Position numbers and translations under genes: made by a program. The notes below the pieces were generated by a model. That model searched no databases. It saw only the letters and a program-made list of their open reading frames with translations, and had not been told where the DNA came from. 64,000 nucleotides of DNA from an uncultured Porphyromonadaceae bacterium (lineage in GTDB: Bacteria > Bacteroidota > Bacteroidia > Bacteroidales > Muribaculaceae), in NCBI GenBank assembly GCA_947176295.1, contig CAMWQB010000001.1, forward strand, positions 4,760 through 68,759. Direction: 5' to 3'. Below are positions 20,049-62,752 of this stretch, piece by piece. Each line of letters starts with the position of its first letter. Position 1 is the stretch's first letter.

Positions 20049-21833
20049 TTACTTCGAGAGCTTCTCCTTGAGGGCAGCCAGCGAGGCGAGGTCGCCCAGC
20101 GTGGTCTTCTCAAGAGGAGTGGTCTGAGCTGCGGGAGCAGCCTCTTCCTGCTTCTTGGCAGGACGCTTGGCAGCCTTGCGCTCAGCAGCCTTCTCCGCAC
20201 GAGCCGGATCCTCGAAGGTGCGGCTGTGGCTTACGATGATGCGCTTGTTGTCCTTGTTGAATTCGATCACCTTGAAGGGGAGCTTCTCATCCACCTTGGC
20301 CGTGGTGCCGTCTTCCTTAACGAGGTGCTTGGGCGTAGCGAAGCCCTCAACACCGTAAGGCAATGCCACTACAGCACCCTTCTCGAGCATCTCGACGATG
20401 GTGCCCTCGTGAACGGAATCCTTCGTAAATACGGTTTCGAATACGTCCCAGGGATTCTCCTCGAGCTGCTTGTGGCCGAGGGAGAGACGACGGTTGTCCT
20501 TGTCGATGTTGAGAACCTCAACTTCGATGTCGGCACCGATCTGAGTGAATTCGCTGGGGTGCTTGATCTTCTTGGTCCACGAGAGGTCGGAGATGTGGAT
20601 AAGACCGTCGACACCTTCTTCGATTTCTACGAATACGCCGAAGTTGGTGAAGTTGCGCACCTTAGCCGTGTGGCGGCTGCCGATAGCATACTTCGTGTCG
20701 ATATCCTCCCAGGGATCCTTCTTGAGCTGCTTGATGCCAAGGCTCATCTTGCGGTCGTTGCGGTCGAGAGTAAGGATCTGAGCCTCAACTTCGTCGCCAA
20801 CCTTCAGGAAGTCCTGAGCACTGCGCAGGTGCTGGCTCCACGACATTTCGCTCACGTGGATGAGACCTTCAACGCCGGGGGCAACTTCGAGGAATGCACC
20901 GTAGTCGGCCATAACCACAACCTTACCCTTCACGCGGTCGCCAACCTTGAGTTCGGGATCCAGAGCCTCCCAGGGATGAGGGAAGAGCTGCTTCAGACCC
21001 AGGGCGATACGCTTCTTCTCGTTGTCGAAATCAAGGATAACGACATTGAGTTTCTGCTCGAGAGCCACAACCTCCGAAGGATGGTTGACGCGGCCCCACG
21101 AGAGGTCGGTGATGTGAATCAGACCGTCGACACCGCCAAGGTCGATGAACACACCATAGGAAGTGATGTTCTTGACGGTGCCTTCGAGCACCTGCCCCTT
21201 TTCGAGGTGTGAGATGATTTCGCGCTTCTGAGCCTCGAGCTCGGCTTCGATCAGCGCCTTGTGCGATACAACGACGTTCTTGAACTCTTCGTTGATTTTC
21301 ACAACCTTGAATTCCATCGTCTTGCCAACGAACACGTCGTAGTCGCGGATGGGCTTAACATCGATCTGCGAGCCGGGGAGGAAAGCCTCGATGCCGAACA
21401 CGTCGACGATCATACCGCCCTTTGTGCGGCACTTGATGTAGCCCTGGATGATGTCGTTGTTCTCGAGGGCAGCATTGATGCGGTCCCAGGAACGGGCGGC
21501 GCGAGCCTTCTTGTGGCTCAGGATCAGCTGGCCCTTCTTGTCTTCCTGGTTCTCGATGAACACTTCCACCTTGTCGCCGACCTTGATGTCGGGATTGTAG
21601 CGGAATTCGCTCATGGGGATGATACCGTCGGACTTGTAATCGATGTTAACAACGGCCTCACGCTTGTTGAGGGCGATGATCGTACCTTCAATTACGTCCT
21701 TATCCTTTACGGAGTTGAGAGAGTCCTCATAAGCCTTGGTGACCTGTTCGCGGCTCTGATCGCTGACGGTTTCACCGTTCTCATAGGCTGCCCAATCGAA
21801 ATCTTCGATCGGAGAATTTTTCAATTCTGTCAT
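20049..21833 (-). CDS. rpsA: 30S ribosomal protein S1
   Basis: Repeated S1 domains (DLGGVDGLIHITDLSW, VEGLIHVSEMSW, DGLIHISDLSW). Confidence 0.97.
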   Translation of the reverse strand: MTELKNSPIEDFDWAAYENGETVSDQSREQVTKAYEDSLNSVKDKDVIEGTIIALNKREAVVNIDYKSDGIIPMSEFRYNPDIKVGDKVEVFIENQEDKKGQLILSHKKARAARSWDRINAALENNDIIQGYIKCRTKGGMIVDVFGIEAFLPGSQIDVKPIRDYDVFVGKTMEFKVVKINEEFKNVVVSHKALIEAELEAQKREIISHLEKGQVLEGTVKNITSYGVFIDLGGVDGLIHITDLSWGRVNHPSEVVALEQKLNVVILDFDNEKKRIALGLKQLFPHPWEALDPELKVGDRVKGKVVVMADYGAFLEVAPGVEGLIHVSEMSWSQHLRSAQDFLKVGDEVEAQILTLDRNDRKMSLGIKQLKKDPWEDIDTKYAIGSRHTAKVRNFTNFGVFVEIEEGVDGLIHISDLSWTKKIKHPSEFTQIGADIEVEVLNIDKDNRRLSLGHKQLEENPWDVFETVFTKDSVHEGTIVEMLEKGAVVALPYGVEGFATPKHLVKEDGTTAKVDEKLPFKVIEFNKDNKRIIVSHSRTFEDPARAEKAAERKAAKRPAKKQEEAAPAAQTTPLEKTTLGDLASLAALKEKLSK

Positions 21834-21937: not shown

Positions 21938-22025
21938 CATTTACGTAAAAATATACACTCCGCAGATTTTGCTGCATATCAAGGCCGCCTCAACAAGCAA
22001 GTTTCCGCTCAACCCGGCGGATTTT

Positions 22026-22057
22026 TTTGCCCATCTCAAAAATTATCACTACCTTAG
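22026..22057 (+). promoter_or_regulatory. Putative promoter of the Rhs array (variant -7 element)
   Basis: TTTG (22026-22029), 20 nt spacer, TACCTTAG (22050-22057); one mismatch to TAnnTTTG. Confidence 0.5.
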
Positions 22058-22078
22058 AGCGCCCAAATCTCCTCGACC

Positions 22079-23158
22079 ATGAAAAAACGCTCCCTCTTCA
22101 CCTCCAACAGAAGCTCCCAACGCAGCTACGGGCGTATTGTCAACTCGGCCTACTCATCCTATCAGCAAAACTATGTCGCCGGACGTGTCTTCAAAGGCTC
22201 TACTTTGGAATATTCTTACTTCCCCGGCGGATACTTCGATGCCGAGGGCAACGTCCATTACACCATCAACGACTATCAGGGCTCCGTCGTGATGGTTGTC
22301 GATTCCGTGGGCAAAGTCGAGCAACACAATAGCTACTATCCCTATGGCGAGTTGCACCGAAATTCTTCGGGGCAGCGGAGGATGTATATCGGCAAGGAGC
22401 TCGTCGACGAAACGGCCTCCTACGACTATGGCCCGCGAGACTTCCGCTCGGCCGGCCTCTATTGGGAAGCCCCCGACATCAAAGCCGGCGACTATCCCAA
22501 CACCGCCCCATACGTCATGTGCGCCGCAAATCCCATCCGCAATTCCGACCCGACAGGGATGAAAATATGGAAAATGAACGAAACCGGCCAAATATTAGGA
22601 ACCGAGGAAAATGCTGATATTGACGGTGATTATATTTATATTTTTAATAATGACGGTGAAGTTATTGCAAAGTCAAGTAAGCATGAAACCGGAACAATAC
22701 AATTGGATGAATCGGGAACAGTGATCGATCCTAATACAAATGAACCACTCAAGGATAATGAAGGAAAGAAGGTTACATATACATCTCTGAAAGTAAAGGG
22801 CGACGAATCTGGAGAACAGCTCTTCAAATTTCTTGCATCAGAGTTAACTGCAAAAGGATCATATATAGAATTTTCATTAATACAAGTAGGGTTTGAGGGA
22901 ACGGGCTCTAATTTCATAACAACAAGCCATCAGAAAGCCTCAGAAGCCGGAGGTGGACAATTATATAGGAATAAATTAGTAAAGGGATATGTCATTCGTT
23001 CAGATTCTCACTCTCATCCTGATAATAACACCGCAAGTAAGACAGATAAAGACACAAAGGAGCAATTTATTAAAAATCAAAAAACAAAAAATACCCAAAA
23101 ATGCATTCCCAAATTTAGGGTTCTAAACTCTTTAACCAATGATTTTTCCGAATATTAA
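22079..23158 (+). CDS. N-terminally short Rhs-core protein with a C-terminal JAB/MPN-like toxin domain
   Basis: Rhs core (NDYQGSV..EQHNSYYPYGE, YIGKE, YDYGPR, PY..CAANPI..DPTG); tip has a conserved E (YIEFS) plus HSHP..AS..D JAB metal motif. Confidence 0.8.
   Translation: MKKRSLFTSNRSSQRSYGRIVNSAYSSYQQNYVAGRVFKGSTLEYSYFPGGYFDAEGNVHYTINDYQGSVVMVVDSVGKVEQHNSYYPYGELHRNSSGQRRMYIGKELVDETASYDYGPRDFRSAGLYWEAPDIKAGDYPNTAPYVMCAANPIRNSDPTGMKIWKMNETGQILGTEENADIDGDYIYIFNNDGEVIAKSSKHETGTIQLDESGTVIDPNTNEPLKDNEGKKVTYTSLKVKGDESGEQLFKFLASELTAKGSYIEFSLIQVGFEGTGSNFITTSHQKASEAGGGQLYRNKLVKGYVIRSDSHSHPDNNTASKTDKDTKEQFIKNQKTKNTQKCIPKFRVLNSLTNDFSEY
22368..22575 (+). repeat. Rhs-core repeat, copy 1
   Basis: 22368-22551 is identical to 24306-24489; 22368-22575 differs from 25840-26047 at 9 of 208 nt (manual alignment). 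Confidence 0.95.
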
Positions 23159-23759
23159 ATATATGCCTATGAGGTTAATTTTAATTGTTTTTTGCCTTTT
23201 GGCTGAGTGCTTTACCTCCGTTTTTGCACTCGAGCCCAGTCCTGTCATAGCCGAGAAAGTGGAGGTGCGCGACAAGGCCCTTTTCGAAGCGATAGACAGC
23301 CTGATACAGACAACCGACCACAAAATGACAATCAAACCGGAATATCGGGATAAAGTACGCGACTCGTTCAACACCCTTACACTATCCCGAGATGATAGTA
23401 AATATCAAGAATCGACTGAGAATACAGCCGACGATGAATTCTGGCTCTTTGTCTATGCCGGAGAATCGTCCAATCACGATCATATCGGCGATTATTATTT
23501 CACGACACCACACTACAGGTTCGTATCCTATCATTATGATGCCAAACTATTTAAGAAAAAGCTGGGCACTAAGAAATGTATAGGCTATAATTATTTATGG
23601 TTTGATGACATCGGGCCGTCATGGTATTTTAAGATTAAGGACAGTCGGATTCTGGAGGCATATTATCATTACGACGAACTCGATGATTTTAAAGGTGTTG
23701 TTTACGACATCCTGAATAAAAAAATTGTTTCGGAAGGGTACGGAGAAATCTTTAATTAA
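23139..23759 (+). CDS. Putative immunity protein P1 (signal peptide)
   Basis: Overlaps the toxin 3' end; AT-rich; hydrophobic N-terminus (true start may be 23163 or 23169); shares W-x-F-x-I and YDILNK motifs with P3/P4. Confidence 0.6.
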   Translation: MIFPNIKYMPMRLILIVFCLLAECFTSVFALEPSPVIAEKVEVRDKALFEAIDSLIQTTDHKMTIKPEYRDKVRDSFNTLTLSRDDSKYQESTENTADDEFWLFVYAGESSNHDHIGDYYFTTPHYRFVSYHYDAKLFKKKLGTKKCIGYNYLWFDDIGPSWYFKIKDSRILEAYYHYDELDDFKGVVYDILNKKIVSEGYGEIFN

Positions 23760-23770
23760 AAAATTTAGCT

Positions 23771-24247
23771 ATGAAAAAATTATTATTGATCGCAATTCTG
23801 GCGGCAGGCTCAATCACAGCTGTTCCCTCGAAAAACCTTTCGCACGAGTGGAAACTCGTCAAAGACGAGACATTTTTCAACTATATCGATTCCATGCTCG
23901 ACCTGAACGACAGCACCCCCTTTATCGATATGGATCCGTGTGAAAGGCAGATGGTTCAGAGCGCAAAAAGATATTATAGAATCACTATCGATGACGGACT
24001 CCAAAAAGACTCCATTACAATAAATGACGGAAAACCTCACAGAATTCACATCGCACAATTTCGGTGGCTCATGCCTGATGCCAAATCGACCATAAAGCAC
24101 AAGGATCGCGTTTACTTTTTTACAGTGGATCACGCAGACGTCTTCAGGTCTTTCCATCCGAGCATCTCAAAAACTTCTTCAAAGAGCTGCCCCTGCCTTC
24201 CCGGGCAAGAATGGCAATTTGAATACACCGCTCAGGCCCGACCATGA
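23771..24247 (+). CDS. Putative immunity protein P2 (signal peptide; possibly C-terminally truncated paralog of P1)
   Basis: MKKLLLIAILAAGSITA signal; KDETFFNYIDSMLDLND resembles RDKALFEAIDSLIQTTD of P1; ends just after WQF. Confidence 0.55.
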   Translation: MKKLLLIAILAAGSITAVPSKNLSHEWKLVKDETFFNYIDSMLDLNDSTPFIDMDPCERQMVQSAKRYYRITIDDGLQKDSITINDGKPHRIHIAQFRWLMPDAKSTIKHKDRVYFFTVDHADVFRSFHPSISKTSSKSCPCLPGQEWQFEYTAQARP

Positions 24248-24259
24248 TAGCCCCCGCCC

Positions 24260-25138
24260 ATGAACACCCGCCACCGCACTCCTTCACCCCTACCCAGCTC
24301 CCGAGCGGGGCAGCGGAGGATGTATATCGGCAAGGAGCTCGTCGACGAAACGGCCTCCTACGACTATGGCCCGCGAGACTTCCGCTCGGCCGGCCTCTAT
24401 TGGGAAGCCCCCGACATCAAAGCCGGCGACTATCCCAACACCGCCCCATACGTCATGTGCGCCGCAAATCCCATCCGCAATTCCGACCCTACGGGGATGG
24501 ACATATCTGTTAAAAATTCACAAGGAGAACTTTTGTTCGTTTTTCCCTATAAAGAAGACTATACCATTGACCTTCCGGTAGATATTCCTTCAGATCCAGC
24601 CAAAATTGGAATTGGCATCGAATATGCTATAACGGGTAGCACATCAGGTGGAACAAAAATGGAAGGATCGGGAATTGCAGGCGTAGTTGTTTTTCTTGGC
24701 GGCAAAGATGCAGGATATGTTTATTCTTACGCTGGTGGAGAAATTGGTGGTGGTATAGAAGGTTCTGTAGGAGTAGGCATAAGCGTAAATAAATCGATTT
24801 TCGTAACGTATCAATCTAAAGGAGATAAAACCGATCATAATCAATTTTCGGGAAAATATGTTTCTGTCGGTGGTTCTTTTAAAGCTATCTTTGGGAAGTC
24901 CAGCCTTTCTGTGTCTAAAGGTCTACAAGAAAAGGGAACTGATGCTGTATGGACAACAGTTGCTCTATCGGAGGGCTGCGAAGCATTCCTTGGGCTAAAA
25001 TCTCCAATTTCACCTTCCATAAGCATCTGCCGGGGTAAAACAGCATTCCTCCCTGGTCAAGATGTTGGCAAACCAAAAAATTTCGCACAAAAAACTTATA
25101 GCTGGGGAAAACTTATTCAACTATGTCTTCGTAAATAA
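24260..25138 (+). CDS. Orphan Rhs module 2: short core plus a Gly-rich toxin tip of unknown family
   Basis: GQRRMYIGKE...DPTG core identical to module 1, followed by an unrelated AT-rich C-terminus. Confidence 0.75.
   Translation: MNTRHRTPSPLPSSRAGQRRMYIGKELVDETASYDYGPRDFRSAGLYWEAPDIKAGDYPNTAPYVMCAANPIRNSDPTGMDISVKNSQGELLFVFPYKEDYTIDLPVDIPSDPAKIGIGIEYAITGSTSGGTKMEGSGIAGVVVFLGGKDAGYVYSYAGGEIGGGIEGSVGVGISVNKSIFVTYQSKGDKTDHNQFSGKYVSVGGSFKAIFGKSSLSVSKGLQEKGTDAVWTTVALSEGCEAFLGLKSPISPSISICRGKTAFLPGQDVGKPKNFAQKTYSWGKLIQLCLRK
24306..24489 (+). repeat. Rhs-core repeat, copy 2
   Basis: 184 bp identical to 22368-22551. Confidence 0.95.
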
Positions 25139-25149
25139 CCGAATTTATT

Positions 25150-25716
25150 ATGGGCAAACTCTTCAAACTCTATCCTCATAATTCACCTGAGCTCAAACTC
25201 ACACGTAAACAAATGATTATATATCGCATAATTCGTTTTGTTATGGTGGTGATTTTTATAATTGGATCTTTTTTTATGATGACCCACGACATGCGAGTTA
25301 ACGATGAAAAATATAGTCTCTATAAATCACAATCTCAATGGCGCATGCTGGGGCAGATGAAGTCGTTTTCGGGGCCTCTGTATGGAGCGCGAGGGAACAC
25401 TCCGACGCAGGATCTATATCTAATTGAAATTGATGTCGATACAATCGAGTTTTTTCGCAATGATCTTCCGGAGGACAGCCCTTATTACGGTGTATATAAC
25501 AAAAACACCAAGAAGGCTTACATAACTACAACTCTATATAATTCAGAGACCAACGACACATACAAACAATCCGATCCCAAACCATATCTTTATGCAGACA
25601 CAAGAAAATCTTTTGCCCTTATTGGCTCCAACGGATTAAATAACGGAATATATATAAATATGAAACCTGCGCTTGAAGAAATGGCCAAAGACACCGCCAA
25701 CTTCATAAAATTCTGA
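25150..25716 (+). CDS. Putative membrane-anchored immunity protein for module 2
   Basis: Starts 11 nt after the toxin stop; one TM helix (IIRFVMVVIFIIGSFFMM); AT-rich. Confidence 0.6.
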   Translation: MGKLFKLYPHNSPELKLTRKQMIIYRIIRFVMVVIFIIGSFFMMTHDMRVNDEKYSLYKSQSQWRMLGQMKSFSGPLYGARGNTPTQDLYLIEIDVDTIEFFRNDLPEDSPYYGVYNKNTKKAYITTTLYNSETNDTYKQSDPKPYLYADTRKSFALIGSNGLNNGIYINMKPALEEMAKDTANFIKF

Positions 25717-25734
25717 CCGCAATCCTCTCCCCAT

Positions 25735-25766
25735 TTTGCACCTTTCCCGAAAAATCACTATATTGC
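25735..25766 (+). promoter_or_regulatory. Possible internal promoter before Rhs module 3
   Basis: TTTG, 20 nt spacer, TATATTGC; shares an ATCACTA segment with the module 1 promoter; weak -7 match. Confidence 0.35.
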
Positions 25767-25790
25767 ACTCGGAATGCCCTACCTTATGCC

Positions 25791-26054
25791 ATGAAGACCA
25801 ATCGATGCAACACAACTCACTTCTGCCACCGTAATCCGGCGGGGCAGCGGAGGATGTATATCGGCAAGGAGCTCGTCGACGAGACGGCCTCCTACGACTA
25901 TGGTCCGCGAGACTTCCGCTCAGCCGGCCTCTATTGGGAAGCCCCCGACATGAAAGCCGGTGTCTATCCCAACACCAACCCATACGTCATGTGCGCCGCA
26001 AATCCCATCCGCAATTCCGACCCCACAGGGATGAAAATATGGAAAATAGAATGA
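25791..26054 (+). pseudogene. Orphan Rhs module 3 with the toxin tip deleted (DPTG-MKIWKIE-stop)
   Basis: Core repeat, then the same first five tip codons as module 1, then a stop overlapping the next ATG (ATGA). Confidence 0.75.
25840..26047 (+). repeat. Rhs-core repeat, copy 3
   Basis: 199/208 nt identical to 22368-22575. Confidence 0.93.
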
Positions 26055-26869
26055 AGACATTATTTAAGTTTATCCGCTGCAAGGCTTGCTTATGCGCTTG
26101 CCTGCTCGTTAGCGGCTTGGTTTACGGCTCTCCCCAATATAGAGTGGAACAGTCAATTGTGCATGAGGGGGAGGGATATCCGGATGGAAAGCTTTTTTCC
26201 CCTTTTTCAGTCCCCACGAAAATACAGGACGGTGAAAATGCGGGTGGAAACGACATCGTGAAATATCTCGACAAGGACATTCTCCGAGATCTACTCCTCG
26301 CGAATAAAAATGAATATAAGGGGAGTTATTTTCTAACTTCGTACGTAGCAACCAAGCCAAACAGGATCCTTGCGGAAATGATGGAAACCGTGCAGTCTAC
26401 TGATTTAGGGAAGCTGTTCAGACCTGATTGTTATATAGACAACTATCTACTGCTCACCATCTACCCGTATCCGGTCAAAATCATATCGACATTATTTGAT
26501 CCAGGTCAATACAACATCGACTTGAAATCGCCGGTTGACCTGATTTCAGAGGGCGAATATGAGGTATATCTCACCTACTGGCCGTGGCCGCATTGGAAGC
26601 CGGATTATGCGTTTGTGTATGATAATCTTTTGGTCTATACCGAGCAATGGATCAATGATGTGTTCACAGAAGAAACAGGATGCGTTACGGAACTACACCC
26701 ACATAAGCACGATATCTTTGACCGGCGGGCAGTGCGCTGGAAGTTCACAATCCTTAATGGGGAAATTGTCGGGAAATCAGTAATGTCGGAAGGCTTCGAC
26801 TACCGATACGCTGTCGTTTACGATTACAATACAAAGCAATTAAAACGCATAGACGTAAATTATGAATAA
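26051..26869 (+). CDS. Putative immunity protein P3 (signal peptide)
   Basis: Start moved to MKTLFKF (26051); clear paralog of P4 (YAFVYD..QWI..AVRWKFTI..YD..K..RID). Confidence 0.65.
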   Translation: MKTLFKFIRCKACLCACLLVSGLVYGSPQYRVEQSIVHEGEGYPDGKLFSPFSVPTKIQDGENAGGNDIVKYLDKDILRDLLLANKNEYKGSYFLTSYVATKPNRILAEMMETVQSTDLGKLFRPDCYIDNYLLLTIYPYPVKIISTLFDPGQYNIDLKSPVDLISEGEYEVYLTYWPWPHWKPDYAFVYDNLLVYTEQWINDVFTEETGCVTELHPHKHDIFDRRAVRWKFTILNGEIVGKSVMSEGFDYRYAVVYDYNTKQLKRIDVNYE

Positions 26870-27593
26870 GACACTTTTTCACAATTCCGGATTACGGCTA
26901 TATTTTCTGAAACTGACGGCATTCATATTTATTCTGGCATCCTTGTCGGTTGAGATTTCTGCACAAAAATACAGCAACGACGGATACCGACATTCGTTCT
27001 TCGTGTCGAAATATGAATGGGAATCGACAGTGGAACTCTTCCCCGATGAATTCTGCGGATACACTACGAGGCTCAAGTTTGTACATGCTCCGGAAAATAA
27101 CACTCTTTCGAAAATGCTTGACCTGATCGACAACACCGATATATCCACAGTTTCAGATGATACGGCCCACCCATCATTTTTCTATGAAATATTCGTTTAC
27201 GACAAGCCTGTCGTCATGCTATACCCGGCCATAAGTCCTATTCTCGTGGAACAACCGACGGACACCGTCGGACCTCTTGACAAAGGCTTCAAGGAAGTGT
27301 ATATAGAAGTTCAGCCATCGATGGACATAGATGCGAAATATAAATTCGTATACGACGACAAGCTTATGTTTTCCCGCCAGTGGATCGACGGGCTGTTCGG
27401 CAAAGAGATTACCGCTCAGACCCTCATCAGCCAGCCTAAGCTGCTGCCGCATGCTGTTCTATGGAAATTCACTCTAATCGATGGGACAATCAAGCAGTGC
27501 GAAGTATTAGTCGAAGACATGAGCAGGCCCGCTATCTGCATATATGACGTCCTGAACAAATCCATACGCAAAATCGACATGCCCCGACGCTGA
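26862..27593 (+). CDS. Putative immunity protein P4 (signal peptide)
   Basis: Overlaps the P3 stop; YKFVYD..QWI..AVLWKFTL..YDVLNK..KID. Confidence 0.65.
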   Translation: MNKTLFHNSGLRLYFLKLTAFIFILASLSVEISAQKYSNDGYRHSFFVSKYEWESTVELFPDEFCGYTTRLKFVHAPENNTLSKMLDLIDNTDISTVSDDTAHPSFFYEIFVYDKPVVMLYPAISPILVEQPTDTVGPLDKGFKEVYIEVQPSMDIDAKYKFVYDDKLMFSRQWIDGLFGKEITAQTLISQPKLLPHAVLWKFTLIDGTIKQCEVLVEDMSRPAICIYDVLNKSIRKIDMPRR

Positions 27594-27628: not shown

Positions 27629-28678
27629 TTAGTTCTCACTTTCTTCGGGCGCCGGGCGAGATGTCCGGGGCTTGATAAGCTCGTCCTGAGCTGTGAATTT
27701 CGGGAAATATTTTCTGAACAGCGGAATGGAGACCCAACTCAGGAGCAAGGCAAGGACAAAAATCTCCACCGCACTCATCGAGTAGCCGAAACACCTCCTG
27801 CCGAGCTTGGGCACATACACGATATACATGGCGTGCAGCCCAAGGACTATCACCGAATAGCGCCCGAAATACGACACCACCGGCAGCCACCTCACGGCCT
27901 TGCAAACAAGAAGCAGACCGACAACCATCAGCACGGATATAACGTATATTTCAAGTATGTTGCCGTAATGAAGATTAGTCTTGAACTCGATGAATGGAGT
28001 GCCGTAATAAACACAATAGCCCAGGGCGGCGGCCATCCCCGTGAGGCCCGCGACGAGATAAAGGCCGTCGCGACGGGTATGATACAGCAGCGGCAGCTTC
28101 CTCATCAATATTCCAATAAAAAAGAAAGGCATAGCATTGAACCCGGTGCCGAAAAACAAGGGCAGATACACATGGTTATAGCTCATGACAGCTCCGGCAA
28201 CCCCGAATACCACTACGGCCACGGCCTTTCCAATCAAGCTTTTGAAGTAGTTGTTTATCGTGAAATATAGCACGTTCACCCAAAAGAGGCCGGCAAGGAA
28301 CCAAACCGGATAGTTGACGATATGCGGCTCGACAAAGGGCATCAGGAACACGTTCCACAGACTTTCCGACCCCGTCAGCACCACAGGAATAAAACCCAGG
28401 AACACGAAGAAACACAAGGGCACCACGAGCCTGTTTATCTTCCTCAGCAGAAACCGGGCGAAGCCTCCGTAATCCTTGAAAAACAATCCCGCCAGCACAA
28501 AATACAGCGGCATTCTCAGAGCCCTCAGCGACGGCACTTCGGTCATGACATCGGAATGAAAAAAGACGATCAGCAGTATGCACACGCCCTTTGCCAGATC
28601 AATGAACTCGATTCGGCCGGAGTCGTCGGCGGAATTCCGCGACCTCACGAAATTATCCTTCAAAAACTCAAGTATCAT
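27629..28678 (-). CDS. Acyltransferase family 3 (OafA-like O-acyltransferase)
   Basis: RIEFIDLAKG..ILLIVFFH, RMPLYFVLAG and WFL motifs; about 10 TM segments. Confidence 0.85.
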   Translation of the reverse strand: MILEFLKDNFVRSRNSADDSGRIEFIDLAKGVCILLIVFFHSDVMTEVPSLRALRMPLYFVLAGLFFKDYGGFARFLLRKINRLVVPLCFFVFLGFIPVVLTGSESLWNVFLMPFVEPHIVNYPVWFLAGLFWVNVLYFTINNYFKSLIGKAVAVVVFGVAGAVMSYNHVYLPLFFGTGFNAMPFFFIGILMRKLPLLYHTRRDGLYLVAGLTGMAAALGYCVYYGTPFIEFKTNLHYGNILEIYVISVLMVVGLLLVCKAVRWLPVVSYFGRYSVIVLGLHAMYIVYVPKLGRRCFGYSMSAVEIFVLALLLSWVSIPLFRKYFPKFTAQDELIKPRTSRPAPEESEN

Positions 28679-28696
28679 TCCCTGCTCCTCGGTTCA

Positions 28697-30553
28697 TTAT
28701 CGCCCCGGATATTCCGCGATAGCACTCAGAAAGCGACGGCCGTATTTGCGGGCTTTCAGCTCGCCCACTCCGAAGACATCCAGGAATTCGGCCGGTGTTC
28801 GCGGGCGCCGGCGCGCCATGTCCTGAAGCGACGCATCGGAAAAGACCATGAACGGCGGCCGCCCCTCTTCGCGGGCAAGCTCCATGCGCACCTGCTTCAG
28901 GTAGTCGACAAACCTCTCATCCACAGGCATCTCCGAATCGTGCGCCTCCGTCATAGCCCTGGCAGCTTCGCGTGCCGAAACAGCCTGCGAGGCGGCAACA
29001 TATTCCGAGAGCTCCAGACGCTCTTCTCCGCGCAGGATACGCATGCCCAATGGCGTAACCATAAGTACGTTCCCGCGGTCATAAGCCACCTCGAAGACAC
29101 CAAGCTGAATCATCTGCCCCACATAGTCCAGCCACTCTTCGCGGCTCAGGTCAGCCCCCACACCGAAAGTCTTTATCCTGTCGTATCCGTCCCGCCGGAT
29201 TTCCTGTCGCTGCGACCCCCTGAGGATGTCGACAAGCGTAAAGACGCCTATCCGCCCCTGCGTGCGCATCACGCCCGAAAGCGCCTTTTGCGCAAGGACG
29301 GTTCCGTCGATTCGCGCCGGAGGATTCAGACAGATGTCGCAATTGCCGCAGTCGCGCACAGCCTCCTCGCTGAAATAACTCAGCAGAATACGTCTGCGGC
29401 ACACCCGTGCATGGGCATAGGCATCCATCCGCCGCAGCTTTTCAGCATTTACGGCCACGCGGCCGCTCTCCTCCACAAACTGGCGGAGGGTGATGATGTC
29501 GCCATAGCTGTAGAAAAGCGTAGCCTCCGCCGGAAGGCCGTCGCGTCCCGCCCGACCTATCTCCTGATAGTAGCTCTCGATATTCGGGGGCATGTTGTTA
29601 TGCACCACCCAGCGGATATTGCTCTTGTCCACTCCCATCCCGAATGCCACAGTGGCGCACACCACCTGCACCGTGCCGTGCAGAAAAGCCTTATGGGCCG
29701 CCTCGCGCGCAGCCGGGCTGAGCCCTGCATGATAGCAGCACGAGCGGATGCCCCGGGCCCTCAGCTTCTCGTCCATAGCCTCTGCCGAGCGCCTCGAGAG
29801 GCAGTAGGCAAGCCCTGAATCGTGGGGATACTTTCGCACCATGTCCATGATATATCTCAGGCGTCCGGCCGGCCCCGGGTTCGGGAAGGCGCGGAGCGTA
29901 AGGTTCGGACGGTCGAAAGAGCCAAGGTAGCAATAAGGATTGCGGAGCCGCAGCTGGGCCACGATGTCGTCGCGCGTCAGCCTGTCGGCCGTGGCCGTAA
30001 GAGCCACCACCGGCACCCCCGGACGCCGCTCCTTGATGCCCGAAAGCGAAGTATACACCGGACGGAAATCATGGCCCCATTGCGAGATGCAGTGGGCCTC
30101 GTCGATAGCGAAAAGGGACACGGGCATGTCGGGGCTCCAGCGGTCGATATCGGCCATAAGCCGCTCTGGCGATATATACAGGAGCTTGATTTTTCCGGCA
30201 TACACCCCGTCCATCACCTCGCGGTTGTAGGCCTCGGAGTTGTTGGAGTGCACGGCAGCCGCCGGGATTCCGTTGGCAGTGAGAGCCTCCACCTGATCGT
30301 TCATCAGAGCGATGAGCGGCGACACAACCACCGCACAGCCCCGCTCGGCCAAAAGCGCCGGCATCTGATAGCACATGCTCTTGCCGCCACCGGTGGGCAT
30401 AAGCACGACGGCGTCGCGCCCCGAGGCAACGGCCTCGATCACGCCCCACTGCCCCGGACGGAAAGACCTATATCCATAGAATCGCCTCAGCAGCGCAAGA
30501 GCGCGTTCCTCGAGGCTGCCGGGAGCTCCCGGACCCTTGCTTTGCGGAATCAT
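28697..30553 (-). CDS. recQ: ATP-dependent DNA helicase RecQ
   Basis: PTGGGKS, DEAHCISQWGHDFRP, QEIGRAGRDG, Zn-binding Cys cluster, RQC and HRDC domains; start at 30553. Confidence 0.95.
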   Translation of the reverse strand: MIPQSKGPGAPGSLEERALALLRRFYGYRSFRPGQWGVIEAVASGRDAVVLMPTGGGKSMCYQMPALLAERGCAVVVSPLIALMNDQVEALTANGIPAAAVHSNNSEAYNREVMDGVYAGKIKLLYISPERLMADIDRWSPDMPVSLFAIDEAHCISQWGHDFRPVYTSLSGIKERRPGVPVVALTATADRLTRDDIVAQLRLRNPYCYLGSFDRPNLTLRAFPNPGPAGRLRYIMDMVRKYPHDSGLAYCLSRRSAEAMDEKLRARGIRSCCYHAGLSPAAREAAHKAFLHGTVQVVCATVAFGMGVDKSNIRWVVHNNMPPNIESYYQEIGRAGRDGLPAEATLFYSYGDIITLRQFVEESGRVAVNAEKLRRMDAYAHARVCRRRILLSYFSEEAVRDCGNCDICLNPPARIDGTVLAQKALSGVMRTQGRIGVFTLVDILRGSQRQEIRRDGYDRIKTFGVGADLSREEWLDYVGQMIQLGVFEVAYDRGNVLMVTPLGMRILRGEERLELSEYVAASQAVSAREAARAMTEAHDSEMPVDERFVDYLKQVRMELAREEGRPPFMVFSDASLQDMARRRPRTPAEFLDVFGVGELKARKYGRRFLSAIAEYPGR

Positions 30554-30558
30554 ACTTG

Positions 30559-30599
30559 CAAAGGTACACACATTTTTTGAAGAATTTGTTATATCTTTG
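30559..30599. promoter_or_regulatory. Back-to-back divergent -7 elements for recQ (-) and polA (+)
   Basis: TACCTTTG on minus (30566-30559) and TATCTTTG on plus (30592-30599). Confidence 0.6.
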
Positions 30600-30668
30600 C
30601 ACAAACCCTATTTTACCCGCCCGGCCACAGGAAAACGCCGGCGCCTCACCCATAAAAAATATTCGACA

Positions 30669-57100: not shown

Positions 57101-57468
57101 AAGAAAGCAAAAACTTCTCCGAGATGGACGGCCTCGCCACCCTCGGCCTCATCATATTCCTGGTAGCCCTTACCCTACCCCGCTGGCAACCCGTCGAAGT
57201 ATATCGCTGGGTGGCGGCTGCCGGAGCGCTTATTATCCTTGTCAGCCGCATATTCACGCGCTACTCCGGCTCCGACCTCAAGCTCCGTCGCCTCCTGCGC
57301 ATTCAGCTCTGGAGCGGCATTTTCTTCTGCGCCGCCTCCGCCTTCCTCTTCATCCCCGGAGGCACCCTCCGCGACTTCATAGCCTTCACCATGGCCGGAG
57401 CCGCAATCCAGATATACACCTCTATCGCCATCCCGAGGCGCCGCAAGAAACTCAGCGAAAATGGCTAA
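57097..57468 (+). CDS. Small membrane protein of unknown function
   Basis: Four hydrophobic segments; overlaps both neighbours; host-like codon usage. Confidence 0.6.
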
Positions 57469-60097
57469 GAAAATTGTCGAGACGCCTCTGATGAAGCAAT
57501 ACGCCGAGATGAAAGCAAAGCATCCCGACGCAGTGCTTCTCTTCCGCGTGGGCGACTTCTACGAAACCTTCTCCGACGATGCCATCGTCGCATCCGAAAT
57601 CCTCGGAATCACTCTCACCCGCCGAGCTAACGGCGCCGCACAATACGTCGAGCTCGCCGGATTCCCCCACCACGCTCTCGACACCTATCTCCCCAAGCTC
57701 GTCCGTGCAGGCAAGCGCGTAGCAATCTGCGAACAGCTCGAAGACCCCAAACTTACGAAAAAACTCGTCAAGCGCGACATCATCGAGCTCGTTACTCCCG
57801 GCGTAGCCCTCAGCGACAACGTCCTCTCTCGTGGCGAGAACAACTTCCTCGCCGCACTCCACATAGGAAAAGCCCTCTGGGGCGTGGCATTCCTCGACAT
57901 CAGCACAGGCGAATTCCTCTGCGCCGAAGGCACACCCGACTACGTCGACAAGATTCTCGCAAACATGGCCCCGAAAGAGCTCCTCGTGCGCCGCGGCCTC
58001 CGCCAGCGCGTCGAAGACGAGCTCTCCCAGCGCTATCTCATCTTCGACCTCGACGAATGGCTCTTCACCTCCGATGCCGCAAACGAGCGCCTCCTCAAGC
58101 AATTCGGCACAGCCTCCCTCAAAGGTTTCGGGGTCGAGCGCCTCGCACACGGAATCATCGCCGCAGGAGCCATCCTCCACTACCTCGACCTCACAAAGCA
58201 CTCCCACACCTCACACATCAACTCCCTCGCCCGCATCGAAGAAGAGCGATACGTCCGCCTCGACCGCTTCACCGTCCGAAATCTCGAGCTCATCGCCCCC
58301 CTCGATTCTGAAGGAAAAAGCCTCCTCGACGTCCTCGACCGCACAGTCAGCCCCATGGGCTCGCGCCTCCTGCGCCGGTGGCTCCTCTTTCCCCTGAAAG
58401 ACCCCAAAGGCATAAACGAGCGCCTCGATGTAGTCGAACACTTCTTCCGCACCCCCGAAATACGCGAAGAGATAGCCGAACGTCTCAAAAGCATCGGCGA
58501 CCTCGAACGCCTCGTTGCAAAAGTGGCTTGCGAGCGCATCACCCCACGCGAGATGATACAGATCCGCAACGCCCTCACAGCCATAGTCCCCATTGCCGAG
58601 ATGTGCCGCCGCTCAGGCCTCCCCGCCCTCCAGAGCACCGGCGAGCAGCTCAATCCCTGCACCATAATCCGCGACCGCATCACCCGCGAACTACGCGACG
58701 ACGCACAGGGCGGACCCTCCGCACACGGCGAAATCTTAGCATCCGGCGTCGACCCCGAGCTCGACCAGCTCCGCGCAATAGCATACGAAGGCAAAGACTA
58801 CCTCCTCAAGCTGCAGGCCCGCGAAGCAGAAGCCACAGGCATCCCAAGCCTCAAAATCGGATACAACAACGTCTTCGGATACTATATCGAAGTCACGAAC
58901 ACCCACAAGTCCAAGGTTCCCGCCCAGTGGATGCGCAAGCAGACCCTCGTCAATGCCGAGCGATACATCACCCAGGAACTCAAGGACTACGAAGAAAAAA
59001 TCATCGGAGCCCAGGAAAAAATCGAGGCAATCCAGACGCGCCTATATTCCGAACTCGTCCGCGCCCTCGCCCAATACATCCCCGCGCTCCAGCTCAACGC
59101 ATCCCTCCTCGCACGCCTCGACGTCCTCAACTCATTCACCCGCGTATCTCTCGAAAACAAATACGCGCGCCCCATCGTCGACGATTCCCTCGTCCTGCGC
59201 CTCGAAGACGCCCGCCATCCCGTCATAGAGCGCCAGCTCCCACCCGGAGAGCCATATATCGCCAACACCGTCGAGCTCGAAAACGAAGCCACGCAGGTCA
59301 TGATGATCACCGGTCCCAACATGTCGGGCAAGTCAGCCCTCCTCCGCCAGACGGCCCTCAACGTCATCATGGCTCAGACAGGCTGCTTCGTGGCCGCATC
59401 AAGCGCACGGATAGGCGTCGTCGACAAAATTTTCACCCGCGTTGGCGCCAGCGACAACATCTCCCTCGGCGAAAGCACATTCATGGTCGAGATGAACGAA
59501 GCAGCATCCATCCTCAACAACATGAGCCGCCGCTCCCTCATCCTCTTCGACGAGCTCGGCCGCGGCACATCCACCTACGACGGCATCTCGATCGCATGGG
59601 CCATCGTCGAGCATATCGCCACATACGCCGACATGCACCCCAAGACCCTCTTCGCCACCCACTACCACGAGCTCAACGACATGGAAGCCTCCTTCCCGCG
59701 CATTGTCAACTTCAACGTATCCGTCCGCGAAATCGACGGCCGCGTTGTCTTCCTCCGCAAGCTCGCTCGAGGCGGCTCCGAACACAGCTTCGGCATCCAC
59801 GTGGCCAAACTCGCAGGAATGCCCCCGAGCATAATCCGCCGGGCCGACAGCGTCCTCGCCCAGCTCGAAAACGCCGCCGCAGGCGACGGCTCCGGCAGCA
59901 AAGCACGCGTAGCCCCCGCCACAGAAGCCTCCGCAGCCGTTCAGGGCGGAATGCAGCTCAGCTTCTTCCAGCTCGACGACCCCGTCCTCTCCGGCATCCG
60001 CGACGAAATAATAGGCACCGACATCAACAATCTCACCCCACTGCAAGCCCTCACAAAACTCCACGAAATCCGCAAAATCCTCACCGGCAAAGACTAA
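57461..60097 (+). CDS. mutS: DNA mismatch repair protein MutS
   Basis: [39 protein letters not shown] and SFGIHVA motifs. Confidence 0.97.
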
Positions 60098-60184
60098 TCC
60101 CCCCCCGGCCGGACACCATAAATAATATTGTCCGTCCCGTCAGACCTATCACAAGCGCCTGCACTGTATTAATCCCGAAACAAA

Positions 60185-60220
60185 CCGAGCCGCAATATCG
60201 CTTGGGATATTGCGGCTCGG
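60185..60220. terminator. Inverted repeat between the convergent mutS and serS (probable shared terminator)
   Basis: Perfect 15-bp arms ccgagccgcaatatc / gatattgcggctcgg; no clear U-tract. Confidence 0.55.
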
Positions 60221-60243
60221 CGTATTACAGATCTTTCGCGGCG

Positions 60244-61515
60244 TCAATCGATGATATCGAAGCCGGTGTACTTGCGGAGACACTCAGGCACCACGATACC
60301 CTCGGGCGTCTGATTGTTTTCCAGCAGAGCAGCCATTATGCGCGGGAGAGCCAGTGCCGAACCATTGAGAGTGTGGCAGAGCTGAGGCTTCTTATCCTCG
60401 CCGCGATAGCGGCACTTCAGGCGATTGGCCTGGTATGTCTCGAAGTTCGAAACCGACGACACCTCCAGCCAGCGCTTCTGAGCCGCGGAATAAACCTCGA
60501 AATCGAAAGTGATGGCCGACGTAAAGCTCATGTCGCCGCCACACAGACGGAGGATATGCCAGGGCAGCCCAAGCTTCTCCAGAAGCCCCTGCACGTGGTC
60601 CTTCATCTCCTCGAGAGCCGCATACGAATCCTCCGGCTTCTCGATGCGCACGATTTCCACCTTGTCGAACTGGTGCAGACGGTTGAGACCGCGCACGTCG
60701 CGCCCATACGAGCCAGCCTCGCGGCGGAAGCATGCCGAGTATGCGCAGTTCTTGATAGGCAGACGATCGGCAGGGATAATCACATCGCGGTAGAGGTTCG
60801 TTACTGGCACCTCGGCCGTCGGAATAAGGTAGAGCCCGTCAGCGGGGCAGAAATACATCTGGCCCTCCTTGTCGGGGAGCTGACCCGTGCCGTAGCCCGA
60901 AGCCTCGTTCACCACATAAGGAGGCTGCACCTCGAGATAGCCGGCCTTCGAAGCCTCGTCGAGGAAGAACTGGATGAGCGCGCGCTGAAGCTTCGCGCCC
61001 TTGCCAAGATATACCGGAAATCCGGCGCCCGTAATCTTCACACCCAGGTCGAAGTCTATAAGATTATATTTCTTCGCCAGATCCCAGTGCGGGAGAGCAC
61101 CTTCGGGGAGTTCAGGCATCGGGCCGCCCGTCTTCTCCACCACGTTGTCCTCGGCCGTCCGCCCCTCAGGCACCATAGCGCAGGGAAGATTGGGAATATT
61201 CAGGAGCTCCGTGCGGATATCGGCCTCCGTGCGTGCCAGCTCATCGGAATAGCCCTTCTGCTCCTCCTTGAGCGTAGCCACCTCAGCCTTCGCAGCCTCA
61301 GCCTCCTCTTTGTTGCCGGCCTTCATGGCCTTGCCGATAGCATCGCTCATCTTCTTGAGGCGCGCTGCGGCCGTGTCGTTCTTAAGCTGGAGCTCGCGTC
61401 GGCGGTCGTCGAGAGCTATTACGCGGGCGATGGCTTCCTTGCCGTCAAAACCCTTTACGGCCAGACGCGCAACTACGTGTTCGGGGTCGGCCTTGATTTG
61501 CTGTATCGTCAACAT
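60244..61515 (-). CDS. serS: Serine--tRNA ligase
   Basis: LIPTAEVP, FRREAGS, RLHQFDKVE, EVSSVSN and TLNGSALA motifs. Confidence 0.97.
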   Translation of the reverse strand: MLTIQQIKADPEHVVARLAVKGFDGKEAIARVIALDDRRRELQLKNDTAAARLKKMSDAIGKAMKAGNKEEAEAAKAEVATLKEEQKGYSDELARTEADIRTELLNIPNLPCAMVPEGRTAEDNVVEKTGGPMPELPEGALPHWDLAKKYNLIDFDLGVKITGAGFPVYLGKGAKLQRALIQFFLDEASKAGYLEVQPPYVVNEASGYGTGQLPDKEGQMYFCPADGLYLIPTAEVPVTNLYRDVIIPADRLPIKNCAYSACFRREAGSYGRDVRGLNRLHQFDKVEIVRIEKPEDSYAALEEMKDHVQGLLEKLGLPWHILRLCGGDMSFTSAITFDFEVYSAAQKRWLEVSSVSNFETYQANRLKCRYRGEDKKPQLCHTLNGSALALPRIMAALLENNQTPEGIVVPECLRKYTGFDIID

Positions 61516-61557
61516 AGGTTGATAAGAATATATATATTTCCTTTCTGTTTTCTCGTC

Positions 61558-62010
61558 TTATTTAGCCAGAAGCTCGCGCACCTTGGCCGAAATCACCCGG
61601 CCATCGGCGCGGCCCGCGAGAGCCTTCGTCGCAACTCCCATCACCTTGCCCATCTCCGCGGGCGAGCTTGCCCCGGTCTGCTCGATGATTTTGCGCAGCT
61701 CCGCCTCGAGCTCCTCTTCCGTCAGAGCCTTCGGCAGGAATTCCTCGATCACGGCCACCTCGGCCAGCTCAGTCTCCGCCAGCTCAGGGCGGTTCTGCTC
61801 GGCATATATCTTGGCGCTCTCGCGGCGCTGCTTGGCCATCTTCACCAGCACCTTCATAGCCGCGTCATCCGTCAGCTCGCCGTTGGAGCCCGGTGCCGTC
61901 TTGGCCTCGATAAATTCCTTCTTGATGCCTCGGAGTGCCTGCAGGCGCAGCTTGTCCTTGGCCAGCATTGCGGCCTTGATGCCGCCTTCCACTTGTGTAT
62001 ACAGGTCCAT
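61558..62010 (-). CDS. GatB/YqeY domain protein
   Basis: IKAAMLAKD..LRGIK, KQRRESA..Y, LPKAL and MGKVMG motifs; start MDLYTQ at 62010. Confidence 0.88.
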   Translation of the reverse strand: MDLYTQVEGGIKAAMLAKDKLRLQALRGIKKEFIEAKTAPGSNGELTDDAAMKVLVKMAKQRRESAKIYAEQNRPELAETELAEVAVIEEFLPKALTEEELEAELRKIIEQTGASSPAEMGKVMGVATKALAGRADGRVISAKVRELLAK

Positions 62011-62053
62011 ATTTCTCTCTATGGTTATTATTGTTTCATTCGGTCGGTTTTTA

Positions 62054-62752
62054 TTATTTCTGAGCCTCCTTCCCCGTGAGGATGCGGAAGAGCTCACGCA
62101 TCCCCTCCGTGGCCGTGGCGCGAATCACGTGCACGCCCGCCGGCACCTGCGCCGGATTCGGGTCGATATAGTAGACCGGCACACCGCGGCGCACGTACTG
62201 CAGCAGCGCTGCCGCCGGATACACCACCAGCGACGTCCCGATGATCACAAACACATCAGCCTCTTCCGCGAGAGCCGTAGCCGGTTCGAACATCGGCACA
62301 GCCTCCTGAAAAAACACGATATGCGGCCTCACGTGGTGGCCGTCGATGATCGTCGCGGGAGTAGTCTCGAGAGCATCCGGGCGCAGTTCATACACCTTCG
62401 TCTCATCGTCAGTAGCCCTCACCTTCATGAGCTCGCCATGCAGATGCATCACGCGCGACGACCCCGCCCGTTCGTGCAGGTCATCCACATTCTGCGTTAT
62501 CACATACACCTCCCAACCCTCGCTCTCGAGGGCGTGGAGAAGCCTGTGGGCCGCGTTGGGTTGAGCCTTCAGTAGAGCCTTCCTCCGCTCATTGTAGAAG
62601 CGGTGGACGAGCTCCGGATTGCGCACATAGCCATCGTGGCTCGCCACATCCATCACCGGGTAGTTTTCCCAAAGGCCCCCCGCATCGCGGAACGTCGATA
62701 TTCCGCTCTCAGCGCTGATGCCCGCACCTGTCGATACCACAAGCTTTTTCAT
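62054..62752 (-). CDS. cobB: Sir2-family NAD-dependent protein deacylase
   Basis: GAGISAESG..TFR, TQNVDDLHERAG, HLHGE, RPHIVFF and IGTSLVVYPAA motifs. Confidence 0.93.
   Translation of the reverse strand: MKKLVVSTGAGISAESGISTFRDAGGLWENYPVMDVASHDGYVRNPELVHRFYNERRKALLKAQPNAAHRLLHALESEGWEVYVITQNVDDLHERAGSSRVMHLHGELMKVRATDDETKVYELRPDALETTPATIIDGHHVRPHIVFFQEAVPMFEPATALAEEADVFVIIGTSLVVYPAAALLQYVRRGVPVYYIDPNPAQVPAGVHVIRATATEGMRELFRILTGKEAQK

Follow-up and report, generated by a model that had tools for sequence, protein, structure and literature searches.

An Rhs cassette of a Muribaculaceae chromosome that has probably lost its JAB1-type toxin and kept the genes in immunity position

How does a toxin cassette come to carry two complete genes in immunity position behind a toxin tip of only seven codons? 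The question is raised by a stretch of 64,000 nucleotides from an uncultured bacterium of the Muribaculaceae (assembly GCA_947176295.1, contig CAMWQB010000001.1, positions 4,760 to 68,759 of the forward strand), called here the window, whose numbering is used throughout. At 22079–27593 the window holds an array of three modules, each an orphan Rhs C-terminal cassette. Module 1 encodes an intact Toxin-JAB1 tip. In module 3 (25791–27593) an open reading frame (ORF) of 87 codons ends shortly after the DPTG motif of the Rhs core and runs directly into two genes, P3 and P4. We consider it likely that module 3 is a cassette from which the toxin was excised by an in-frame deletion, and that it would now provide orphan immunity for defence only.

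The junction in module 3

The features of module 3 are as follows.

25735–25766, + strand: promoter-like site of the Bacteroidetes type, TTTG (25735–25738)-N20-TATATTGC (25759–25766), in the 74-nucleotide (nt) spacer before the module
25791–26054, + strand: remnant ORF of 87 codons, known from its translation; degraded end of the Rhs core, five toxin-tip codons, two more codons and a stop
25827–26030, + strand: Rhs core repeat common to modules 1 and 2, ending in DPTG (26019–26030); aligned from an anchor at 25841
26031–26047, + strand: 17 nt, coding for MKIWK and reaching 2 nt further, with which the Toxin-JAB1 tip of module 1 also begins; two copies in the window
26048–26054, + strand: tail A-GAA-TGA and the overlap of stop and start in ATGA, probably what is left of the toxin gene's own 3′ end, judging from the junctions of two related loci, L004 and L005
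26051–26869, + strand: P3, a signal-peptide protein of 272 amino acids (aa), placed by profile search, family alignment A5 and synteny
26862–27593, + strand: P4, a 243-aa signal-peptide paralog of P3 and member of the same family, whose start overlaps P3 by 8 nt

The remnant ORF reads ...NPIRNSDPTG-MKIWKIE-stop, as a preliminary description of this DNA had stated, and ends seven codons after DPTG. It matches the Rhs core model TIGR03696 (Rhs_assc_core) with 38 bits (cut-off 32.5), residues 17–81 covering model positions 13–76 of 76, and the core domain stops exactly at residue 81 of 87. No toxin domain is found in module 3 with Pfam, and a JAB-like HxH...S..D motif is absent. What follows the core is nevertheless recognizable. 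The tip starts with an ATG at 26031, and its first 17 nt (ATGAAAATATGGAAAAT) occur exactly twice in the 64 kb, at 22559 in module 1 and at 26031 in module 3, where 0.01 copies are expected by chance. Both copies directly follow DPTG, which bears out the identity with the start of the JAB tip that the preliminary description had reported. Beyond the 17-mer the two modules agree in GAAYGAA with a 1-nt gap; this was tried as an alternative breakpoint and rejected, being too short to be told apart from chance or microhomology.

The end of the remnant is joined to P3 in a compact manner. The TGA at 26052–26054 overlaps the ATG of P3 at 26051 within ATGA, and both this overlap and that of P3 with P4 are present as described earlier. 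An alternative in-frame ATG of P3 lies inside the 17-mer at 26039 (MENRMKTLF...) and is used by the NCBI annotation, giving a protein of 276 aa. The same module 3 junction is found in a second assembly, GCA_029058335.1, which is 99.9% identical and in which an 87-aa gene is annotated for the remnant ORF. Guanine plus cytosine (GC) content marks P3 and P4 as foreign (0.418–0.464, or 42–46%, vs 55–63% in the flanks and the host chromosome), and this composition is counted in favor of a toxin-excised cassette.

Upstream of the remnant ORF, the promoter-like site reported in the preliminary description is present, with P ~0.001 for the pattern in shuffles of the 74-nt spacer. Its counterpart at module 1 is TTTG (22026)-N20-TACCTTAG. 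The relaxed pattern TTTG-N19-21-TAnnTT is rare, with just seven sites on the window's + strand, and two of the seven, at 22026 and 25735, fall in the two real intergenic gaps of the array; in a sigma-70-type scan the site at 25735 scores 9 of 12. The proposal that module 3 remained expressible draws on this motif, and expression is to that extent a prediction. The heptamer ATCACTA, said to be common to the promoters of modules 1 and 3, is real, but it gives no evidence of common descent: the two promoter regions align with a score of 29 against 24.8 ± 4.3 for shuffled sequences, and a common origin was rejected. In a contig of the gut metagenome X1, the promoter region of module 3 (cf. window 25734–25816) stands directly after a hairpin on the rpsA side that resembles the hairpin of module 1 (…CCGCCCACCCGGCGGATTT|TTTTGCACC…). 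From this arrangement, a module-3-type unit may head the array in some relative, with modules 1 and 2 absent or elsewhere.

P3, P4 and their relatives behind intact toxins

P3 and P4 are paralogs (E 3e-18, 26% identity), both with hydrophobic N-terminal leaders. A profile built from the two and run against 1.84 billion representatives retrieved 12 further clusters, 14 in total, at E 1e-19 to 4e-4. The family is small, unnamed and divergent, with 17–24% identity to P3 in alignment A5. Its members are defined by a signal peptide followed by a C-terminal domain of ~190 aa, in which the motif KYCFxYGxxLxFTxQWIxxLF and W-[RK]-F are conserved; P3 and P4 have all of these. F188, Q199 and W230 are invariant in the alignment. 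Both ORFs are intact at the full length of the family and keep all invariant and motif residues. A hydrophobic leader is found in all members and a lipobox-like Cys in several, and hmmsearch with the profile recovers every tandem paralog in the loci that were fetched.

In five independent loci a family member lies directly downstream of an intact Rhs-core-DPTG-Toxin-JAB1 gene (P0004 in L004, P0005 in L005, P0007 in L007, P0012 in L017 and P0011 in L018, where L017 is counted with L016 as a variant and L018 together with L019). The five upstream tips score 22.6–33.3 bits against the Pfam Toxin-JAB1 cut-off of 21. The start of the gene in immunity position overlaps the toxin stop in four of the five, and P0007 starts 1 nt after it. 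Since family members directly follow Rhs-Toxin-JAB1 genes at five loci, a JAB-type toxin has very probably been lost from module 3 while the genes in immunity position were kept. That claim of the preliminary description is thus supported by synteny and not only by 17 nt, and its proposed refutation, that homologs of P3 and P4 would never be found next to toxins, does not apply.

Both ends of the remnant tip resemble the ends of these toxins. Ahead of family members the tips read ...DPTG-M[D][VLG][WF]..., with a start consensus of M-[DK]-x-[WF]-x-[LM]-[ND]-x-x-G (MDVWVLNNYG, MDGWALDENG and, in module 1, MKIWKMNETG), and MKIW of module 3 fits the conserved M-[DK]-x-[WF]. The C-termini of the five toxins all take the form W-x(1-4)-stop (YLYWHKK, YHRWKK, YIYWN, YKLWHPKK and IVTWVPD), and the remnant ends in IWKIE. 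The junction of L004 is WHKK-stop/ATGA and is laid out as in module 3: a W is followed by three codons and TGA, and this stop overlaps, as ATGA, the start of M-K-x-L-[YF]. That of L005 is TGGAAAAAATAG, with an overlapping immunity start, compared with TGGAAAATAG in module 3. L004 also shares the architecture of the array, since a further Rhs core fragment begins behind its immunity gene. The toxin gene of L018 is a full-length Rhs gene of at least 1251 aa (L018/L019), and the end of its core (HRNPAGQRR...; …YYPYGEQHRNPAGQRRLYIGKE…DPTGMDGWALDENGNIVG) is close to those of modules 1 and 3. L016 and L017 differ in the length of a homopolymer (A6/A7; ~300 in L016, ~55 in L017), and this shifts the frame of the JAB1 toxin ahead of P0012 in L016; either the sequence is in error there or L016 has a further inactivated toxin before an intact immunity gene.

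Toxin-less members recur in the family. L006 and L008 carry two tandem members preceded only by a 62-codon Rhs remnant, YTWNDAGLMTSDS, a segment that sits ~200 residues upstream of DPTG in L007. L010–L015 carry four tandem members, and the upstream sequence, of which 128 nt are available, holds no toxin. The orphan P1 and P2 homologs of L018, and a contig of X1 on which a P2-like end is joined to a P3-like gene, count as further cases of immunity outlasting its toxin. The fourth paralog is split into two ORFs in L010 and L013 (2449–3233) and is intact in L011 (2464–3237) of the same study. At L006 3–338 a segment of Rhs core (…YSYGVMANPLKVKRWGV) passes directly into the central part of a JAB1-like tip without the HxH motif (AYVTSSKEVGAENA…), and a multi-pass membrane protein of 218 aa follows; this is apparently a different internal deletion in the same toxin class.

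An AlphaFold2 model of P3 on the family alignment is moderately confident (predicted local distance difference test score (pLDDT) 73.8, predicted template modelling score 0.67) and predicts a helix for the leader, a disordered insert and an alpha+beta domain turning beta-rich. Foldseek of this model against the PDB gave no match at E<0.1, with template modelling scores <0.2. Pfam and NCBIfam scans at E<=10 gave no match for P3, P4, P1 (the first immunity-position gene of module 1) or the 12 relatives. P3, P4 and the tip of module 1, used as queries in word-index protein searches, retrieved nothing but themselves. Against the GTDB representative genomes and JGI metagenomes, the P3 protein found no relative, the JAB tip of module 1 found L001 only, and the degenerate patterns DPTGMKIWK and YCF[AS]YG...F[ST]xQW found nothing. 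Since these searches were nearly empty, the family is visible only in metagenome assemblies of Logan, ENA and NCBI.

P1 is the sole non-member matched by the P3/P4 profile among 2073 ORFs of the window and the fetched loci (hmmsearch E 0.0017). With hhalign, 14 sequences give E 5e-4 over 148 columns with a probability of 32%, and two sequences per side give E 0.04; BLASTP gives E 0.005–0.06. P3/P4 and P1 may possibly share a distant common origin by these comparisons. A single-sequence AlphaFold2 model of P1, with pLDDT 42, is unusable. The tips of module 1 and of L001 pair with P1-type proteins and have no W-x(1-4)-stop ending.

The surrounding array and known systems

The remaining features of the array are these.

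22079–23158, + strand: module 1, truncated Rhs core (~146 aa of homology; TIGR03696) and intact Toxin-JAB1 tip (PF15659, 1.5e-17) starting MKIWKMNETGQ
23166–23759 and 23771–24247 (span 23166–24247), + strand: P1 and P2, the immunity-position genes of module 1, with an orthologous pair in L018 (49% and 66%)
24260–25138, + strand: module 2, Rhs core fragment (TIGR03696, 30.7 bits, just below the cut-off) with an unclassified glycine-rich tip
25150–25716, + strand: membrane protein of module 2, 188 aa, without a Pfam family

The array is flanked by rpsA (20049–21833, − strand) on one side and by an acyltransferase gene and recQ (27629–30604, − strand) on the other. Between them lie eight co-directional ORFs with low-GC bodies, three of which begin with a common block of ~200 nt, GQRRMYIGKE...NPIRNSDPTG, with which the Rhs-associated core domain (TIGR03696) closes. 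In the 190 nt that lead from the anchor up to DPTG, modules 1 and 2 agree at 188 positions, and module 3 agrees with module 1 at 181 and with module 2 at 180. The product of module 1 is annotated as a Muribaculaceae hypothetical protein. Its homology to the Rhs protein of L018 begins at residue ~14 (QRSY...) behind a new start of 13 residues, its own TTTG-N20-TACCTTAG site follows a hairpin (window 21990–22078), and it is an intact JAB1 toxin encoded without an Rhs shell or export signal. The tip of module 2 is ~210 aa long and glycine-rich (GGTKMEGSGIAGVVVFLGG...); neither the tip nor its partner has a Pfam or NCBIfam family, and the two are possibly an uncharacterized membrane-active toxin and its immunity protein.

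Among the large ORFs of the window there is no full-length Rhs gene, no gene of a type VI secretion system (T6SS) and no recombinase. All three modules are therefore orphan fragments, there being no full-length Rhs gene in the window, and it is the array as a whole, not module 3 alone, that is without a delivery-competent toxin there. The plasmid collection held no match for the locus. The window and the NCBI contig L002 show seven differences, all of them within 92 nt of the Rhs fragment of module 1 (22161–22252), the other 11 kb being identical, a distribution that suggests a local patch of recombination or gene conversion. Elsewhere in the window, an ORF of 1233 codons without a Pfam match (58378–62079, + strand) overlaps mutS (57461–60097, + strand, another frame) and serS (60244–61515, − strand), and is most likely spurious, a long frame in a GC-rich region.

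In Enterobacteria, orphan rhs-CT/rhsI and cdiA-CT/cdiI modules reportedly lie downstream of Rhs and contact-dependent inhibition (CDI) genes. By analogy, the locus would be matched most closely by an orphan Rhs-CT/immunity array of this kind, without a resident full-length rhs in the window and with one tip excised. Like the enterobacterial rhs-CT/rhsI modules, the cassettes here are in tandem, and in each a core fragment to DPxG is followed by a variable tip with its immunity gene; GC is lower in the tips than in the host, and the repeated core allows recombination. The differences are that the host belongs to the Muribaculaceae (Bacteroidota), that no full-length rhs is found in the locus or the 64-kb window, where the upstream neighbor is rpsA on the opposite strand, and that the tip of module 3 is cut in frame to seven codons with the core fragment and two immunity genes kept. 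As an orphan Rhs cassette, module 3 has the core with DPxG and the downstream immunity gene, and lacks the variable toxin after DPxG.

In the T6SS of Vibrio cholerae, orphan immunity arrays arise by sequential displacement of effectors (PMC5361080). There too the effector is lost, the old immunity gene is kept downstream, and the multi-immunity array is thought to protect against toxin-bearing kin. In that case, however, an incoming effector-immunity module replaces the effector, whereas here the toxin would have been cut from its own cassette with both ends left behind, and the delivery context is Rhs instead of a T6SS auxiliary cluster.

The preliminary description compared module 3 to the acquired-immunity arrays of gut Bacteroidales. 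The likeness to acquired interbacterial defence systems (AID-1) and their recombinase-associated form (rAID-1) is functional: co-directional, low-GC, toxin-less immunity genes in gut Bacteroidales, with a predicted role against the toxins of others (bioRxiv 10.1101/471110). Membership does not follow. An rAID-1 cluster is recognized by a 5′ XerD-like recombinase, at least two co-directional genes with GC <=41% and integron-like intergenic repeats (10.1101/471110). Here no such recombinase is present at the locus, the neighbors being rpsA on the 5′ side and the acyltransferase gene and recQ on the 3′ side; P3 and P4 are co-directional but their GC of 0.418–0.464 lies above the cut-off; and the genes of module 3 overlap without spacers, the sole repeats being the copies of the Rhs core. 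Unlike AID-1, the locus lies on no integrative conjugative or other mobile element, and its ribosomal, replication and repair flanks keep the same order in the second assembly. Remnants of an Rhs core, as present in this array, set it apart from AID and rAID clusters alike. With housekeeping genes as flanks, a reading based on CRISPR, an integron or a recombinase was rejected as well. L001 (2185–7086), from a metagenome-assembled genome of an uncultured Bacteroidetes, is laid out differently: two adjacent ORFs that read as tyrosine-recombinase-like, a call made from the letters of the sequence, lie ~1.8 kb upstream of an orphan core-fragment/JAB1/lipoprotein cassette, and another Rhs-type fragment follows. 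This layout, unlike that of the window, looks rAID-like.

The toxin class itself offers a further comparison. Zhang et al. (2012, PMC3482391) described Tox-JAB-1 as specific to Bacteroidetes, linked to RHS and accompanied by the immunity protein Imm65, a lipoprotein of alpha+beta type. The P3/P4 family resembles that pair in adjoining Toxin-JAB1 (five loci), in its signal peptide, in the lipobox-like Cys of several members, in the alpha+beta domain predicted for P3 and in having a conserved Y-C motif. In the scans described above, no model of the library matched P3, P4, P1 or the 12 relatives at E<=10, the presence of an Imm65 model in that library being unconfirmed. By comparison with the published description of Imm65, the P3/P4 family is either a second immunity family of Tox-JAB-1 or a branch that has diverged beyond the reach of the existing model.

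Loss of the toxin and what it means

The favored course of events is a single one. One in-frame internal deletion, itself judged quite probable, would have removed ~190 codons (~0.6 kb) and joined the N-terminal M-K-I-W-K codons to a native C-terminal W-K-I-E-stop; the remnant M-K-I-W-K-I-E-stop is a tip start and a tip end with one W in common. The deletion could have arisen between short direct repeats around TGGAAAA(T), but microhomology at this position is a conjecture that we lean slightly against. The native ATGA coupling to P3 would have survived. The preliminary description had the deletion couple the remnant directly to the immunity genes; the overlap is there, but the coupling is probably ancestral and was not made by the deletion, because the layout of L004 is the same and all five toxins end in W-x(1-4)-stop. 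Transcription of the cassette would then be driven by the promoter-like site (25735). The remnant ORF would be translated, and P3 and P4 would be translated by coupling, exported through their signal peptides and able to neutralize incoming JAB1-type Rhs toxins of neighboring Bacteroidales. These steps of transcription, coupling, export and protection are inferred.

Several points weigh against this account. The 17-nt identity is with module 1, whose P1 is of a different or very distant family (the hhalign probability being 32%). No close ortholog of P3 or P4 with an intact toxin was found, the relatives being only 22–30% identical, and hence the ancestral state is deduced from synteny at the level of the family and the breakpoints are not provable. 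Expression of module 3 and of its proteins is predicted from sequence, the sequences are metagenome assemblies, and a literature search found no experimental test of any Toxin-JAB1 toxin or member of the P3/P4 family. The X1 metagenome adds a complication. It holds fragments ~85–95% identical to the array, and one contig joins a P2-like end across 151 nt to a P3-like gene that lacks an upstream core remnant and starts differently (MRLLL...). The fragments hint that the array has recombined in a more complicated way, and recombination may have acted here instead of one simple deletion.

The X1 fragments are also the main support for an alternative in which no toxin was deleted at this place. 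P3 and P4 would then be pre-existing orphans of a poly-immunity island, and an illegitimate or short-homology recombination would have put a module-1-type 5′ end (core and MKIWK) in front of them, so that the lost tip was never their cognate toxin. Such islands exist: at L018 (GCA_964493495.1, 3761–8260) the armed Rhs-JAB1 gene and its P3/P4-family partner are followed by a toxin-less island of six or seven small membrane-protein and lipoprotein genes, including the P1 (49%) and P2 (66%) orthologs, which is a poly-immunity island. Homology-facilitated illegitimate recombination is moreover the model proposed for the Vibrio immunity arrays (PMC5361080), and the 17 nt after DPTG agree with a module whose immunity gene is of the P1 type. 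A random junction is not expected, however, to copy the native layout of toxin end and immunity start, as the remnant tail and its ATGA do (W-x(1-4)-stop in 5/5 toxins). The N-terminus of P3 (MKTLF) resembles that of P4 (MNKTLF), which makes the 5′ end of P3 look native, and the core copy of module 3, being 95% and not 100% identical to that of module 1, is no recent duplicate. We regard this alternative as unlikely. About as little weight is given to the view that module 3 is a decaying relic, its P3 and P4 unexpressed or useless, merely not yet disrupted and without a function in defence. The reliance on sequence signals for expression, the lack of a full-length Rhs gene in the 64 kb, the frameshifted members of related arrays (the split fourth paralog of L010 and L013) and the rarity of the family would all suit a relic. 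Against a relic, both ORFs are at full length with every invariant and motif residue, and the promoter-like site and the overlapping start and stop codons are preserved; the same structure is found in two strains that differ elsewhere, fragments ~90–95% identical exist in a relative, and immunity kept after loss of the toxin recurs in the family.

That P3 and P4 are not immunity proteins at all, but secreted accessory or cargo proteins that travel with JAB1 toxins, is improbable. No known immunity family matches them, P3 has no fold match in the PDB, and their predicted export sits uneasily with the suggestion that JAB toxins are possible cytoplasmic nucleases (Zhang et al., PMC3482391). Yet the published Tox-JAB-1 partner Imm65 is likewise a signal-peptide lipoprotein (PMC3482391), and the position directly behind the toxin, with a stop/start overlap in four of five loci and a distance of 1 nt in the fifth, the tandem paralogs, the extreme divergence and the persistence without a toxin are the signature of polymorphic-toxin immunity. 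An artefact of assembly, with collapsed or mis-joined repeats and a short tip that occurs in no cell, is the least credible of all: the region does hold three repeats of ~200 nt, and the contig of the NCBI assembly breaks inside the array, but the junction lies outside the long repeat, is in frame with a native-looking ATGA overlap, and recurs unchanged in two assemblies whose contigs are structured differently and which show strain-level single-nucleotide polymorphisms elsewhere.

With excision by deletion as the preferred account, the locus is a case of orphan Rhs immunity, a known habit of keeping the antidote after the poison has been discarded, and no new kind of system. What is new is the precise deletion scar and the newly delineated, Tox-JAB-1-linked family in immunity position, which has no structural neighbor. 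The scar is unusually legible in that both ends of the toxin gene survive, joined in frame. A bolder proposal, which we put forward as rather unlikely, is that the dead toxin gene is reused as a leader for P3 and P4 and that these proteins represent a structurally new exported immunity fold of Tox-JAB-1. Bacteroidota start translation largely without Shine-Dalgarno sequences. Were the leader reading true, the promoter, the 87-codon ORF and the native ATGA would have been kept for driving coupled translation of orphan immunity genes. Were the fold a new exported one, the target of Tox-JAB-1, first proposed to be nucleic acids, would instead lie in the periplasm or envelope.

In the gut, orphan immunity is believed to influence the coexistence of strains, and most of what has been documented comes from Bacteroides T6SS loci, from Vibrio and from enterobacterial Rhs and CDI loci. 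The locus described here extends this pattern to the Rhs arrays of Muribaculaceae. Its relatives L004, L005, L007, L017 and L018 provide concrete pairs of toxin and antidote for testing, and P3 and P4 can serve as a natural antidote-only pair for gauging the breadth of protection.

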